DNA from: a virus
Lineage: Duplodnaviria > Caudoviricetes
Length of the DNA stretch: 64,000 nt
Strand: one strand, 5' to 3'
Virus record (IMG/VR): IMGVR_UViG_3300035696_003004
Location: 1 to 64,000 of that record
The number at the start of each line of letters is the position of its first letter. The first letter of the stretch is position 1. Of this stretch, positions 29,652-63,307 are shown piece after piece. Made by a program: the position numbers and the translations under genes. Below the pieces are notes generated by a model. The model did not search any database and was not told the DNA's origin. It was given only the letters and a program-made list of their open reading frames with translations.

Positions 29652-30098
29652 GTGGGCAAAAAGTTATGTACAGCGAGTAGAAAGCAGGTTCCGGCGATTG
29701 TTGCGGAGGTGCTGGCGGCTTTAAGTTTGTCTGATGAAAAGGAGATTGTGTCGGAGATCCAGCGTCTGCAAGAGTGTGCGCTCGAACTGATCGAATTGAA
29801 GCGATCCTTTTTTCGTATTGCGCAGATGTTCCTCGTGGAACATAAAGGGCTTCACCCTTTGAAGCTTACGGCTGAAGAAAGCTACCAGATAAATCGGATC
29901 ATTACGGATGCGGATATGATGGTTGAGGAACTACAGTTTGAAAATTACCGGTTGCGGAAGGAACTAAAAAATCTTATTGGCAAGGCGCAAAATAAGAGGC
30001 AAAATGTCAAGAAGCAGGTGCATCATGGCAACAAAAGCGGAAAAAGAAAAACAAGCACTTCACAAAGAGTGCAGGGCCCGACGAAGCGAATGGATTGA
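29652..30098 (+). CDS. hypothetical helical protein
   Basis: GTG start with GGAGG RBS; 148 aa. Confidence 0.65.
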   Translation: MGKKLCTASRKQVPAIVAEVLAALSLSDEKEIVSEIQRLQECALELIELKRSFFRIAQMFLVEHKGLHPLKLTAEESYQINRIITDADMMVEELQFENYRLRKELKNLIGKAQNKRQNVKKQVHHGNKSGKRKTSTSQRVQGPTKRMD

Positions 30099-30267
30099 AT
30101 TTCGGAGAAAGTATTTGTTTACGCAGAAGCGGCTGGCGGAAGTTTTAGGGATCAGCCGGCGAACGGTACAGATGATCGAAGGTGAGCGGGTTGAAAGGCC
30201 GCATCCGGACACGCTGCGGGCATTCCTTACGCTCAAGATCAAGCACGAGCGCGGCGAAACGATGTAG
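30025..30267 (+). CDS. XRE-family HTH protein
   Basis: FTQKRLAEVLGISRRTVQMIEG...P..DTL. Confidence 0.8.
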   Translation: MATKAEKEKQALHKECRARRSEWIEFRRKYLFTQKRLAEVLGISRRTVQMIEGERVERPHPDTLRAFLTLKIKHERGETM

Positions 30268-30274
30268 CGCTTGG

Positions 30275-30928
30275 CAGTGCATCGGACAGATGCAACCGCT
30301 GCGTCGAAGGTCCGAGTATGCAACAACCAAATGGCAATGGTTTTGTAGTGCATTGAGCTAATGCAACTCCGATGTATTGGAACTTACAAACGACAACGTG
30401 GAGTAGCAACAAATTTGCAGTGCATTGAAAAATGCAACGGTATTTTCCACGACGAAAGCTTTGTAGTGCATCGAATGGATGCAACAGATAGGGGATATCC
30501 GCGTATACTTTTCCCGACACGTATCAAGTAATTTGTAGTGTATCGGATGAATGCAACCTAATACTGTATCTACTCCGGCTCAAGCTAAGGCGCGTATCAA
30601 GTAATTTGTAGTGCATCGGATGGATGCAACGTCAAACGTACAATTGTCAAAACGTTAATTTGATCGGCACAACAAAGTCGCAGTGCATTGAATAGATGCA
30701 ACCCCCACATCGCTGCGTTTGTAGGATTGGAAATACGTGGCAACAAACAAGCTGTGCATCGGGCAGATGTAACACCGGCCAATCCGCAAGCAGTGTGCTG
30801 CAAAGCACAACGACATGGCCTCTACGCTAGTGAGTTCACTGAATAAGTGAAACAACTCAAGGTGAATGCAGAGCGTTGGACAAACGCAACGGCTTCGAGA
30901 AATCGGGAGTGCATCAAACAAATGCAAC
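30275..30928 (+). CRISPR. degenerate CRISPR-like array, about 12 units, no cas genes nearby
   Basis: 36-37 nt repeats at 30331, 30403, 30521, 30594, 30666 and 30737 with 34-36 nt spacers; truncated units end at 30296, 30485, 30811, 30853, 30890 and 30928; same repeat family as the 62.9 kb array. Confidence 0.75.
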
Positions 30929-31029
30929 AATTGCACTGGATGCATAAATAGGGCATTACACAAATTCATTTTTGTGCTAGTGATATAGTAAGTGTGCAAA
31001 AATGCACCAACTTAGAAAGGCGGTTTTCT

Positions 31030-31443
31030 ATGCCTGAAGACGAAGGCTATACGGAAGGTTTAACGGGAGAAGAGATCATTTTGGACGTTCTCGATCAACT
31101 AGACAAGAAACTTCACACTGATTGCAATTTGCGTGAAACGGATGCCTATCCCGGCGGCTACGATGGTTGGATTGAATACTTTTTACGCCCACGCGGCTTG
31201 GATACGGTCGAAGTTCGATCAAAAATTATTGTCGGCTCACCCGCGCTTTCCGGCCAAGTGAAAAAGGTTGTGGAAGGTCGTATTGACATTCCACTTGAAA
31301 CAAGTCTAAATGTCGTTCGTGAACGGAGTAGCCAAGGCGTTCCTACGTTATCTAAAGATGAAAACGGTCAGCCCATTGTCGTAAAGCGCCAATATCGACG
31401 TCGTAACGTAGAAACAACCGCAGTACCAGAAGAAACAAAATAG
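31030..31443 (+). CDS. hypothetical protein
   Basis: RBS AAGGCGG; first gene of the packaging block. Confidence 0.65.
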   Translation: MPEDEGYTEGLTGEEIILDVLDQLDKKLHTDCNLRETDAYPGGYDGWIEYFLRPRGLDTVEVRSKIIVGSPALSGQVKKVVEGRIDIPLETSLNVVRERSSQGVPTLSKDENGQPIVVKRQYRRRNVETTAVPEETK

Positions 31444-33426: not shown

Positions 33427-35574
33427 ATGTATTCAGAACGCGTTATCTTGGCCAATTTGGACGAGTTTGCAGCTCGTGAAGGATGGATGCCAGTCTATCA
33501 TTCGCTCGATCAAGTAGAGGAATTTAAGAAGTATATCGACTCTATTGTAAAAGTTGAAAGCAATTCTCGATCTTCCTATGTAACTCTTATTCGTACCATC
33601 ACCGAAAAACGGCGCAAGGAGATCTGGCATTGGATCGAAAACGAACAGGCATTGTGCGGACTCGATTCGAACTATTTCGAATCTCGCTACGCCTATGTGT
33701 GCGATGAAAAAGGGCAGATATTTAAATTTAAAAATCGGCTTTCCCAACAAATTTTCGATTCCGTAATTGCCGACTTCGATGAACGGCAAGTATCAATCGA
33801 GTTACTAATAATCAAGGCAAGACAAGTCGGAGTAACCACAAAAACAGCACTAAAGTTTATTCAAAAATTACTTTTTATTCCACATACGCAAGCCGTAATG
33901 GCTTCTGTCCAATCGGATAAATCCGAGTTGATTGGTCGCATTTTGAATACCGTCTATAACCATTGTCCTTGGTGGCTGGTACCACGTTCGCTGCCCAAAG
34001 GTGCTTATGATAATGGCTCAATTCTTTCAATTCAGTCAGGTATGCAAGCGACCGGAATCGCTCAAGGATGGACTCCAACAGCCATACACGTCTCGGAGCT
34101 GGCTGATATACCGAAACCGAAAAAAGTGATCGAAGAGGGTTTACTTAGGGCCACTCACTCTTCCCGCAACTTGTTTTTGGTTTTTGAAGGAACTGGCGGC
34201 GGTAATACTGGCTGGCTGGCAGATACTTGGCGTGCATCCAAAGAAGATTGGCCTAAAGGCCGCGCACGGCTTTGCCCGATTTTTATTCCTTGGGTAATGG
34301 TACCAGATCTGTATCCGGAACCAGATTGGATTCGTAAATTCCCCGTTCCAGGCGGTTGGCATCCAAATGAAGCTACGCATAAGCATATAACGCGCTGCGA
34401 ACTTTATGTTCGTAATACTCCATATTTAACCAAAGTTGTTGGCAAAGATTGGAGAATGCCAGTCGAACAAAAGTGGTTTTGGGAATTTAACTACATGCAA
34501 GCATGCAAGAACCATACTCAAAAAATTTGGCTCGCGCAGATGGCTGCCGATGATCATGAAGCATTAACCGGTGTTTACGATAGTGTATTTGAACCAGAAA
34601 CAATCGACGAGATCGAAAAGTTTAATTACGTAATTCATACGGATGGAAGAACGCGACGGAAAAAATCGCTTCAGGCATATGCAATCACAGGTGATTCGAT
34701 CGATGATAGCTTTAATCCAGATGAATCGTTAATTGATTACGAAAAAATGCATATTCGTGTCTCGTGGCAATCCGATCGTGGACAAAAATTTTTTTGGACG
34801 CTTGTTCCTTTAAAACCAATAGACGAAGAAGATGAAAACGACACGCTCGACAAACTTTTGGTATACGAAGAACCTCAATCGGGCTGCGACTATAGCTGCG
34901 GAATCGATACGGCCGATGGCCTAGGAAAAGAAGACGAAGACCGTACTTGCGTTTCAATGACGCGAAATCGGTTTGGTGATGAGTGCGATTATCAGGTCTG
35001 CGAACTAACTTCAAATAGGATAAATTCTGCACAAATTGTAGGCTTTGCCGCATGCATGGCGGCTTGGTATGGCGAACATACAAAAAATCCGCTTGGCGTC
35101 AAATTCTGTGTCGAACAGATCAGTCGGCCGGGGGATACCTGCCAGCATCAGCTAAAGTTAATGGGCTTTCATTATCATCACAAGCCGCGGCGCTACGACA
35201 GTAAGAAAATCAAAGATGATTCCGGGAAAAAGGAAGGTTGGTTTTCCAACGTATGGAGCGTACCTATCTTGATGACGCGTTTTACCGAAGCCGTGAATGG
35301 CGGTTGGTACCGGCCAGCGTCAAAATGGCTAATCGAGGAATTAAAAACACTAGAACGCCATGAAGCTGCAGGCCGGGCTTCGAAAATGATCCATCGTAGT
35401 GGCTATCACGATGATCGTGTACGTGCCGCTGCGCAGTCTTACTTCACCATTCACGATATGGATGTGTTAGCAGATCGGGCGCAACGGCGTTATTCGCCCC
35501 CGACAGATAGCAATCCACCGCTTAGTCGATCAAAATGCTCGGTCAACAACGTATGTGTAGGAGGATGGGATTGA
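33427..35574 (+). CDS. terL: terminase large subunit
   Basis: IIKARQVGVTT Walker A, IHVSE Walker B, FEGT coupling motif, GIDTADG..D and HDD nuclease motifs. Confidence 0.9.
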   Translation: MYSERVILANLDEFAAREGWMPVYHSLDQVEEFKKYIDSIVKVESNSRSSYVTLIRTITEKRRKEIWHWIENEQALCGLDSNYFESRYAYVCDEKGQIFKFKNRLSQQIFDSVIADFDERQVSIELLIIKARQVGVTTKTALKFIQKLLFIPHTQAVMASVQSDKSELIGRILNTVYNHCPWWLVPRSLPKGAYDNGSILSIQSGMQATGIAQGWTPTAIHVSELADIPKPKKVIEEGLLRATHSSRNLFLVFEGTGGGNTGWLADTWRASKEDWPKGRARLCPIFIPWVMVPDLYPEPDWIRKFPVPGGWHPNEATHKHITRCELYVRNTPYLTKVVGKDWRMPVEQKWFWEFNYMQACKNHTQKIWLAQMAADDHEALTGVYDSVFEPETIDEIEKFNYVIHTDGRTRRKKSLQAYAITGDSIDDSFNPDESLIDYEKMHIRVSWQSDRGQKFFWTLVPLKPIDEEDENDTLDKLLVYEEPQSGCDYSCGIDTADGLGKEDEDRTCVSMTRNRFGDECDYQVCELTSNRINSAQIVGFAACMAAWYGEHTKNPLGVKFCVEQISRPGDTCQHQLKLMGFHYHHKPRRYDSKKIKDDSGKKEGWFSNVWSVPILMTRFTEAVNGGWYRPASKWLIEELKTLERHEAAGRASKMIHRSGYHDDRVRAAAQSYFTIHDMDVLADRAQRRYSPPTDSNPPLSRSKCSVNNVCVGGWD

Positions 35575-61935: not shown

Positions 61936-62874
61936 ATGGTCCTTATGCAACCAAGCGCTAAAATACTTGCTGCGTTCGAAAGATGTCCTCGCATGGCTTT
62001 TTGGATGCGTTCTTGGCAGCAATACAAAATGGATGACATTCAAATGCTTCAAGCGGGTATACGAATTGGTGTTATGGAAATGGAGCGTAAGGATTGGGGA
62101 CAGGTTGCTGGTGAACAAGTTTATGCGCTCGGCCTCGAACCTGGTTTAGAAACAAATTACTTTAATGTGCATGACCAAGTTGTTCATTTGGCTTCGATTG
62201 CCGACATTGTAACAACGGCTATACGAAAACAACAAGAAAAACCTTGGGGTATACCGCCACCAGTGCTATTGGGAAAGCAAGGGTTGCAATGGAATTCTTC
62301 TGCTTATATTGATCCGTCTGGTTCGCATTTGCGAAGGATTGTTTTAGTATCGAATTGGTCCGATGAACGGCATTACAGCGAAGCGCGATCCTATTTTTCG
62401 TTAGGTGAAGTTTGTGCATATGGTTTGCCAATGCAGCAGGTAGTTATTGTGCTGGGTCAGAACCGAAGTGGAAAGCGACATTCGGCATGGACAAAGGGAT
62501 TTCGGCACCCACGAAATAAGAAACTGCGTTTTCGCAAAAAAAATGATGTCACTGTGCCATTTAATTCAAATTGGGATAAAGTATGGCGAGAGGATTTTAG
62601 CGATATTTCTACGCACGATTGGTTACAAGCAATGTTGGATGATGGCGTTCTTCAAGATCATTGCTTTACGGTTCAAATTGATGTGCCGATCCAGATTACT
62701 CGAAAACATATACTTGATTTAATGATGCGTAAGCTTGAAGCAATTGAAAAATTAAATACACTACCCGATGAACAAATGACCGGCTGTGACTGGCCTTATA
62801 AATGCCAATTTCGTAAGCCGTGTCATTCTGGCGGCGAGCCGAAAGAGGGGGTATTTAGAGTGATTGCGCAATAG
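61936..62874 (+). CDS. Cas4/AddB-like PD-(D/E)XK-fold protein, nuclease motif apparently degenerate
   Basis: N-terminal S..L..FERCPR and C-terminal C-x5-C-x5-C (1+3 Cys Fe-S staple pattern); no clear D/ExK motif. Confidence 0.55.
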   Translation: MVLMQPSAKILAAFERCPRMAFWMRSWQQYKMDDIQMLQAGIRIGVMEMERKDWGQVAGEQVYALGLEPGLETNYFNVHDQVVHLASIADIVTTAIRKQQEKPWGIPPPVLLGKQGLQWNSSAYIDPSGSHLRRIVLVSNWSDERHYSEARSYFSLGEVCAYGLPMQQVVIVLGQNRSGKRHSAWTKGFRHPRNKKLRFRKKNDVTVPFNSNWDKVWREDFSDISTHDWLQAMLDDGVLQDHCFTVQIDVPIQITRKHILDLMMRKLEAIEKLNTLPDEQMTGCDWPYKCQFRKPCHSGGEPKEGVFRVIAQ

Positions 62875-62880
62875 TGCGTT

Positions 62881-63131
62881 GTTGCATCTATTCGATGCAT
62901 TACAAAACCGTTGCTACTCGAGCTGGTGGCTTGGATCTAGCCAAACCACATAGTTGCATCTGTTCGATGCACTACAAAACCGTTGCTACGGAACAACTGC
63001 GACTTGAAAACGAGGCGTTTCTAATTGCATCTGTTCGATGCACTACAAACCGTTGCTACATACTCTTCCGCACGACCAAATCGTAAATGGCCAAGTTGCA
63101 TCTGTTCGATGCACTACAAAACCGTTGCTAC
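62881..63131 (-). CRISPR. CRISPR mini-array, 4 repeats and 3 spacers
   Basis: 37-nt repeat GTAGCAACGGTTTTGTAGTGCATCGAACAGATGCAAC (minus strand) at 62881, 62953, 63024 and 63095; spacers 35/34/35 nt; most diverged repeat at the trailer end. Confidence 0.92.
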
Positions 63132-63307
63132 AACACAATTATAACTATTTTGTTTTGAATGGCCACAAGCTGCTTTCCGCGAACCGCGTAAATTTGTGCT
63201 TTTCAATTGTAACGAGCGGCACAATACTCATTCTATCTCTTTCAAAATCAGCATATTATCCCTTCCGCAAACTTTTTGAAGTTTTACCGAAACTGAAGGT
63301 TCGCGCA
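63132..63307 (-). promoter_or_regulatory. array leader with promoter
   Basis: AT-rich; minus-strand TATAAT ends 6 nt before the first repeat. Confidence 0.6.

Follow-up and report, generated by a model that had tools for sequence, protein, structure and literature searches.

What is an array of related but divergent units resembling CRISPR (short palindromic repeats, clustered and regularly interspaced) doing in a phage, when no cas gene is found on the record that carries it? The question is raised by a stretch of 64,000 nucleotides (nt; hereafter the window) that forms the first 64 kb of the 72,987-nt IMG/VR record IMGVR_UViG_3300035696_003004 (Caudoviricetes), and in particular by array A, a run of 12 hairpin-ended units on the + strand (window positions 30,277-30,928) located between an XRE-type helix-turn-helix (HTH) gene and an open reading frame (ORF) that begins at 31,031 and opens the block of packaging and structural genes. 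We consider it reasonably probable that array A is an inherited CRISPR RNA (crRNA) array that loads a Cas12m-like effector for the benefit of the phage, a reading that is carried by the array itself, the structural constraint on its hairpins, a family of cognate effectors, the conservation of the locus, and the targets and protospacer adjacent motif (PAM) of related arrays.

The hairpin cores of units U1-U6 lie at 30277-96, 30348-67, 30420-38, 30466-85, 30538-57, and 30611-30, and those of U7-U12 at 30683-702, 30754-73, 30793-811, 30834-53, 30871-90, and 30909-28, all on the + strand, with end-to-end periods from U1 to U12 of 71, 71, 47, 72, 73, 72, 71, 38, 42, 37, and 38 nt. A prediction made earlier from the sequence alone (the original prediction) had described 12 related but divergent units with a kept 3′ hairpin and AC, and all 12 could be located and folded, each with a terminal stem of 5-6 bp, a loop of 4-7 nt, and AC as its tail. 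In the full-length part of the array (U1-U8, 30260..30773, + strand), a degenerate 17-nt 5′ half precedes a 20-nt hairpin ending in AC, and the spacers measure 34, 35, 10, 35, 36, 35, and 34 nt, i.e., the six full-length spacers (34-36 nt) that had been foreseen plus one truncated to 10 nt. The regular spacing and unique spacers by which CRISPR arrays are recognized are found in U1-U8 (period 71-73 nt, once 47 nt), and the same regular spacing is lacking in the tail (U9-U12, 30774..30928, + strand), where the units consist of a hairpin alone and stand 17-22 nt apart (unique segments of 18, 22, 17, and 18 nt). Upstream of the tail hairpins, the 5′ half of the repeat is matched at 6-9 of 17 bases, which is the random level, and no repeat-like sequence is left. 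The tail period of 37-42 nt, already likened to the size of a crRNA, matches a minimal type V crRNA. The window also holds array B (62881..63131, - strand), composed of four near-identical 37-nt repeats GTAGCAACGGTTTTGTAGTGCATCGAACAGATGCAAC and three spacers of 34-35 nt, and the proposed relation of array A to this 62.9 kb repeat is real. The hairpins of U1-U8 have 15-19 of 20 bases in common with that of array B; for the 5′ halves of these units the figure is 8-14 of 17 bases (random ~8).

Folding gave a single geometry in 12 of 12 units, weakened in U5 (-1.5 kcal/mol) and U12 (-3.2 kcal/mol). The latter (30909..30928, + strand) is near-canonical, GTGCATC-AAACA-AATGCAAC, and the stems of the other three tail units are rewritten through compensatory changes: U9 (30793..30811, + strand; GTGTGCT-GCAA-AGCACAAC) and U10 (30834..30853, + strand; GTTCACT-GAATA-AGTGAAAC) form perfect 6-bp stems, and U11 (30871..30890, + strand; GAGCGTT-GGACA-AACGCAAC) forms 5 bp followed by an AAC tail. 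Across the 16 units of the window, 96.7% of the cells pair and five of the six pairs have changed on both sides. In the shuffling check that the original prediction had proposed for the rewritten hairpins, none of 500 shuffles attained the observed pairing or covariation, and slid controls paired at 22-49%. Perfect 6-bp stems with a 4-5 nt loop and an AC tail occur outside both arrays six times in 146 kb, both strands counted (expected ~4.5), and the probability of two non-canonical perfect hairpins (U9 and U10) standing in phase within 155 nt is ~2e-5. The covariance model search that had also been suggested was run with a model built on the 16 window units; it found no further unit in the 73-kb record.

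The locus is conserved in related phages. An array sits at the same place in L102-L104 (large terminase, TerL, identity 89%), in the metagenome counterparts L141, L151, L163, and L209, and in the more distant L206; in all of these, the HTH gene ends next to or inside the first hairpin, a conserved trailer of ~60 nt follows the array, and the last unit lies just before the downstream gene, while the spacers differ between the phages. In the window, the HTH gene (29977..30267, + strand; Pfam HTH_3 2.7e-5, phrog_8) probably has its true start at ATG 30004 or 30025, and its stop codon TAG (30265-67) falls inside the first array unit, a fusion of gene and array that is also seen in L103, L209, and L206. 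The trailer (30929..30991, + strand; ..ATAAATAGG..TTTTTGTGCTAGTGATATAGTAA) is conserved in L103 and L206 even though the spacers differ, and it is followed by a 13th, degenerate terminal unit (U13, GTGTGCAAAAATGCACCAAC, 30992..31011, + strand) situated 19 nt before the start of ORF 31031-31443. This unit is canonical in L103 and L206, whereas in the window it is degenerate and is not scored by the covariance model. Short hairpin-only units (17-25 nt between hairpins) are likewise present in L096 and L206, and a terminator-like hairpin with T's behind it, identified by eye just past the first L096 array, fits the orientation of the array. The array is absent in more distant relatives, and the complete genome G001 (134 kb) has neither cas12 nor arrays; because of these absences, we regard the arrays as accessory.

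These relatives also bear on the history of the rewritten stems. The L103 counterpart of U10, GGGTACT-GAATA-AGTATCAC, has the same loop and lies in the same part of the array, which suggests that the two hairpins are orthologous; it keeps six pairs via two-sided changes. A tail hairpin of L206, GGGTGCT-GCATA-AGCACCAC, is a relative of U9 and can be set beside U10 and its L103 counterpart among the tail variants. As the covariation exists both inside the window and between orthologous tail units of three related phages, the hairpins of array A are under selection for RNA structure and are not in plain decay, as the original prediction had argued from the compensatory changes; the conservation of structure at homologous loci, which it had named as a check, is seen in the tail hairpins of L103 and L206, where pairing is kept by two-sided changes. 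A dead array in neutral decay after the loss of its cas genes could account for the degenerate 5′ halves of the repeats, the truncated spacer, the two weakened stems, and the failure to find targets or a cas gene in the record. Such decay would, however, break stems, whereas here nearly all cells pair, the changes come in compensating pairs, and the rewritten hairpins are retained in diverged relatives, which makes this explanation quite improbable.

In order to find an effector that could read these hairpins, metagenome contigs were scanned for the canonical form, which yielded > 120 loci, mostly from peat-type samples and many with long arrays. The large ORFs of these loci were clustered, and one family was located directly upstream of arrays on the same strand. 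Its members are cas12 genes, which directly precede arrays with this hairpin, co-directionally, in L227, L161, L134, and L132 (745-770 aa, with one open frame of 679 aa in L134), in agreement with the type V effector expected by the original prediction. The family as a whole (715-790 aa) matches the Pfam Cas12f1-like TNB domain and PADLOC Cas12u1 (2e-26), and the best match of its profile in the PDB is Cas12m (1.9e-23). For an AlphaFold2 model of a family member (predicted local distance difference test, pLDDT, 82.5), the nearest structures are those of Cas12m2 and GoCas12m, with similarity along almost its entire length (Foldseek against Cas12m2: 6.7e-20, template modelling (TM) scores 0.42/0.52). 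The RuvC motifs GL(D/E)IGWR (RuvC-I), ILEENF (RuvC-II), and QDxNAAxN (RuvC-III) contain the D/E, E, and D residues. Judged by sequence profile and predicted fold, the cognate system is Cas12m-like and related to type V-M, formerly named V-U1 (PMC11013384); we do not file it as V-M because the proteins are larger and their RuvC residues are D/E-E-D instead of H-D-D.

The hairpin of array A also lies downstream of cas12, with or without cas4-cas1-cas2, in L132, L227, L161, L134, L246, and G052. In L132, the order is cas12-cas4-cas1-cas2, then 11 identical repeats, and then an ERF gene. Chromosomal cas12 genes with mini-arrays of the same design occur in bacteria (L243, L246, and G052); one of these genes lies on a 476-kb contig between cytochrome c maturation and copper-efflux genes, together with a three-unit mini-array, and in G052 the hairpin that comes after a truncated cas12 has exactly the sequence of the U6 core. 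Two Cas12 homologues are labelled by NCBI as proteins of Terracidiphilus metagenome-assembled genomes, and on the basis of these names the host is probably an acidobacterium (Acidobacteriota) of the Terracidiphilus kind. The Cas12 family is present in 2 of 151 sampled genomes of that bacterial family, one of them G052, and when genome contigs were scanned with the hairpin pattern, isolated chance matches were all that appeared, without any host array. Hairpin repeats unrelated to CRISPR, such as elements resembling repetitive extragenic palindromes or protein-binding iterons, would also be short and structured and would stand on a record without a cas gene; the occurrence of the identical hairpin in canonical arrays beside cas12-cas4-cas1-cas2 refutes this idea for practical purposes, and we give it next to no credence.

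At least seven stem forms are present in the arrays of the family (TGCATC/GATGCA, TGCACC/GGTGCA, TGCACT/AGTGCA, TGCGCC/GGCGCA, TGCGCT/AGCGCA, TGCGTC/GACGCA, and TGGCTC/GAGTCA), with the geometry and the CAAC end constant in all seven. Two forms are mixed within a single cas12-adjacent array (L134/L161), and because one such array mixes them, a single effector accepts varied stems, whose variety does not call for several effectors; the original prediction of an array tuned to several host effector variants is therefore unnecessary. The repeats are identical in L132, where the adaptation module is present, and only the 3′ 20 nt are kept in the arrays without nearby cas genes and in the chromosomal mini-arrays. 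Related "spacers" are paired in some chromosomal and mobile-element mini-arrays adjoining cas12, namely in units 1 and 3 of L243:12290-12480 and in a duplicated two-unit block in L246:12330-12790, from which it follows that the arrays grow by duplication and drift and not by acquisition alone.

A hairpin unit is also observed in the 5′ untranslated region (UTR) of cas12, 23 nt before the ATG in L161 (- strand) and 15 nt before it in L246/L247, and in L246 this unit is preceded by two degenerate ones; it may be an autoregulatory or processing element. This layout is relevant to the possibility that the units of array A act in cis, either as sites where Cas12 binding and cleavage separate an early (HTH) transcript from the late genes, or by giving the late mRNA a 5′-terminal hairpin with protein bound to it. 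In the window, L103, and L206, 19-31 nt separate the terminal unit from the start of the next gene downstream, and the trailer before that unit is conserved. The similar placement in L161 and L246/L247, 15-23 nt ahead of the cas12 start codon, hints at the handle being used in cis-regulation. A cis-acting role would nevertheless account for one or two units and not for twelve with unique spacers, and the terminal unit of the window is the degenerate one that escapes the covariance model, which is why we hold this account to be improbable.

The guides of related arrays were examined using a set of ~680 spacers, of which four have clear non-array matches. A spacer of L184 matches a site ~60 nt ahead of where the gene of a TonB-dependent outer-membrane receptor likely starts (L204; 5′ flank TTC), a spacer of L206, from the homologue of array A, matches inside a TadE-like pilus gene (L221; 5′ flank TCC), a spacer of L176 matches a small ORF that belongs to a prophage-like stretch of bacterial chromosome (G390; 5′ flank TTC), and a spacer of L177 matches inside the gene of a caspase-domain protein (G318; 5′ flank TTC). 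The PAM of the family may be 5′-TTC, as read from three of four protospacers in a small sample, and such flanks fit both the orientation in which the hairpin is a 5′ handle and the 5′-TTN PAM of Cas12m2 (PMC10442227). Small as it is, this set of sequence matches shows that real guides exist in the arrays of this lineage and that several are directed at host genes. When 683 family spacers were compared with four related phage genomes, only their own arrays were matched, and no targeting of these close relatives was seen. In L177 (3800-3860), ~57 nt between arrays have 79-90% identity to many genomes of the likely host family and may be a tRNA fragment or an attachment site.

Whether array A consists of guides or decoys was left open by the original prediction. 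The four protospacers of related arrays, three of them with 5′-TTC, favour guides, and no target was found for the window spacers in the sequences searched. As an anti-CRISPR, the array, and above all its tail, would be a set of crRNA look-alikes that soak up the Cas12 of the host or of a rival phage, as decoys of the RNA anti-CRISPR (Racr) kind, or that, in the manner of Cracr arrays, direct this Cas12 to repress its own promoter or a safeguard gene. The tail units are hairpins without the 5′ half of the repeat and without a normal spacer, and their period of 37-42 nt is close to the 40 nt of a mature V-A Cracr (19-nt handle plus 21-nt spacer; bioRxiv 10.1101/2024.10.29.618823). Moreover, Racrs against V-A are already known (PMC10651486), an HTH gene precedes the array as in acr-aca operons, the cognate Cas12 is present in bacterial chromosomes, and the hairpin units in the cas12 5′ UTR of L161 and L246 imply that hijackable autoregulatory circuits may exist. 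Against this, PAM-proximal matches of ≥ 9 nt to any segment of array A are absent from the five cas12 upstream regions compared, the U1-U8 part keeps full-length unique spacers, for which a decoy has no use, true protospacers that carry a PAM exist for related arrays, and the effector is encoded by related phages themselves. An anti-CRISPR function is a serious but rather unlikely alternative.

Array A can also be compared with the described Cracr/crlRNA (bioRxiv 10.1101/2024.10.29.618823) and Racr (PMC10651486) elements. Like them, array A is phage-borne, lacks cas genes, stands beside a regulator gene, retains the Cas-binding hairpin in degenerate repeats, and stacks units of ~40 nt into an array. 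In Cracr arrays, about 9-10 or more PAM-proximal bases of the spacer-like part match the promoter of a cas or safeguard-toxin gene beside a PAM. Unlike the described elements, array A gave no cas-promoter match in the five cas12 upstream regions, carries full-length spacers in its U1-U8 part, belongs with a V-M-like and not a V-A or type I system, has rewritten stems, and corresponds to an effector encoded by relatives of the phage. The Racr form, a repeat-like unit without a functional spacer, is one that the tail units fit, whereas U1-U8 carry normal spacers and the phage element may itself encode the effector.

If array A is a crRNA array for a Cas12m-like effector, its working can be outlined as follows, and here we infer its transcription, its processing, the source of the effector, and its targets. 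The array would be transcribed by read-through from the upstream HTH gene; space for a leader is lacking, and neither a promoter nor a terminator of consensus type was found. Each 20-nt hairpin, together with AC, would be the 5′ crRNA handle to which a Cas12m-like protein binds, the protein then cutting upstream of the hairpin (Cas12m is known to cut within its own repeat; PMC11013384, PMC10442227), and the sequence after each hairpin would be the guide. The upstream 17 nt of the repeats could then drift freely because only the handle is required, and the stems would change by compensatory substitution only. With no adaptation module to homogenise the repeats, each unit would evolve alone; the most diverged units lie at the far end of the array. 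The tail units would be minimal cassettes of a hairpin plus 17-22 nt, close to the length of the heteroduplex in Cas12m2. As sources of the effector, the 46% of the phage genome that was not sampled, the host chromosome, and a co-resident element come into question. For the phage, the payoff would be a Cas12 reprogrammed against host genes or rival elements, and competition with host crRNAs for Cas12 would be an automatic side effect.

Several results speak against this scheme. No convincing protospacer of an array A spacer was found in the record, 1.6 Mb of related loci, the related phage genomes G001-G003, or INPHARED, and none in IMG/VR (22-nt seeds of five spacers) or in 401 genomes of the likely host family; the search of viral and host genomes that the original prediction had recommended thus gave no target for any spacer of the window, those of array B being likewise without a convincing match (IMG/VR covered by 22-nt seeds of one spacer). 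No promoter or terminator of consensus type and no leader was detected at array A, one spacer is truncated to 10 nt, and the stems of U5 and U12 are weakened. The scaffold of Cas12m2 is a pseudoknot that includes upstream repeat bases (PMC10442227), and these bases are unconserved in array A. In addition, the tail segments could be meaningless filler, in which case the tail units would be decoys. Finally, none of the large ORFs of the record encodes a Cas protein by comparison with Pfam, PHROGs, NCBIfam, and PADLOC. The statement in the original prediction that no cas effector is visible is accordingly true of the whole record, and it is uninformative, since the record is a provirus fragment (class provirus, CheckV completeness estimate 54%). 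With its ERF recombinase and P4-type integrase, its pair of DNA methylases, a primase-helicase and large terminase, and almost all of its genes on the + strand, it looks like a temperate phage or provirus. Its start lies 23 nt before the ERF start codon and its end (72,987) falls exactly on a stop codon, as is typical of trimmed proviruses. The region upstream of ERF that is thereby missing is occupied in relatives by an array (L090 and L127) or, in L132, by the cas12-cas4-cas1-cas2 operon with its array.

Matches to host genomes seemed to cluster at U8 and the first tail segment but were rejected as chance; one was a prophage array (G034) and one a 17/18 match in G162. The latter concerns the first tail segment itself (30774-30791, 18 nt), which matches 17/18 bases after TTC in a chromosomal gene (G162:C117, from the likely host family; chance ~0.07) and is also common at 17/18 to a spacer of L219.

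A more specific form of the proposed crRNA function, which we offer tentatively and consider rather doubtful, is that the tail is a minimal multiplex cassette (20-nt handle plus ~18-nt guide) by which a temperate phage silences host genes through a Cas12m-like, possibly binding-only effector, its stems having been deliberately diversified at a constant shape so that units packed closely together would not recombine. Candidate targets would be surface receptors, defence genes, and cas12 itself. If this were true, the effector would read the shape of the handle and not its sequence.

Among known CRISPR-Cas systems, the closest is type V-M (Cas12m), to which the cognate effector is nearest by hidden Markov model, profile, and predicted fold. 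As in V-M, the crRNA here apparently carries a repeat-derived 5′ handle, the candidate 5′-TTC PAM (three of four protospacers) is compatible with the 5′-TTN of Cas12m2, and V-M is found on mobile elements and prophages as well (PMC11656645). Effectors of the family described here are nonetheless larger than V-M effectors (715-790 aa vs. ~600 aa), their RuvC residues are D/E, E, and D in place of the non-canonical H-D-D of Cas12m2 (PMC10442227), V-M effectors being ones that bind DNA and leave it uncut, the upstream half of the repeat is dispensable, and most arrays of the lineage have no nearby cas genes. Virus-borne mini-CRISPR arrays and phage CRISPR-Cas systems (PMC11656645) are similar in that phage repeats match a cellular or phage Cas system and spacers are aimed at other elements or host genes. 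They differ in that array A has 12 units, with dozens per genome in its relatives, in the heterogeneity of the repeats, and in that the arrays are apparently inherited, evolving by duplication and drift over fresh acquisition. Phage mini-arrays, Racr, Cracr arrays, phage CRISPR-Cas, and V-M on plasmids and some prophages are thus already described (PMC11656645, PMC10651486, bioRxiv 10.1101/2024.10.29.618823). What sets the present case apart is that its Cas12m-like effector is larger and has a RuvC triad that seems complete, that many units stand without nearby cas genes, that the repeat is reduced to a bare handle, and that compensatory evolution of this handle is clear, also between orthologous units of different phages.

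The surroundings of array B offered further observations. Its leader region (63,095-63,305) is conserved in L115, L131, L185, and L188, and the first 11 nt of its spacer 3 match position -41 of the L227 cas12 (flank CAG and not TTC; chance ~0.03). An ORF of 312 aa (61936-62874, + strand) converges on the array, a pairing of gene and array that is also seen in L137, L174, L194, and L201. One N-terminal Cys and a C-terminal C-x5-C-x5-C recall iron-sulfur nucleases of the Cas4/AddB type; the ORF has no match in Pfam, PHROG, NCBIfam, or PADLOC, and its identification as Cas4 was rejected, as BLASTP shows no similarity to the Cas4 of L132 or the PD-(D/E)XK protein of L227. The 573- and 664-aa ORFs beside array B were considered as Cas12 candidates and discarded (no family match, virion-like composition). 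Elsewhere in the window, the TerL gene (33427-35574) is 2,148 nt long, vs. 2,934 nt in the 89%-identical L102/L103/L104; in L103 there is an insertion of ~1.1 kb at the point equivalent to window ~34,093, for which an intron, an intein, and an inserted homing endonuclease are all conceivable.

The array of the window thereby links a crRNA handle to an uncharacterised family of ~750-aa Cas12m-related proteins that occurs widely in metagenomes from peat and soil and sporadically in genomes of Acidobacteriota-like bacteria. The covariation maps this handle in terms of its paired positions and fixed bases (G1, the G..A of the loop, and the CAAC end), and multiplex guide arrays that are compact and resist recombination have a natural model in the hairpin-only units. 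The phage lineage is common in peat and soil metagenomes, and this temperate lineage invests in many arrays without nearby cas genes, with up to dozens of units per genome in relatives. Host genes make up most of the few identifiable targets of the related arrays (those of an outer-membrane receptor, a Tad pilus, and a caspase-domain protein), which suggests a phage-directed reprogramming of the host.

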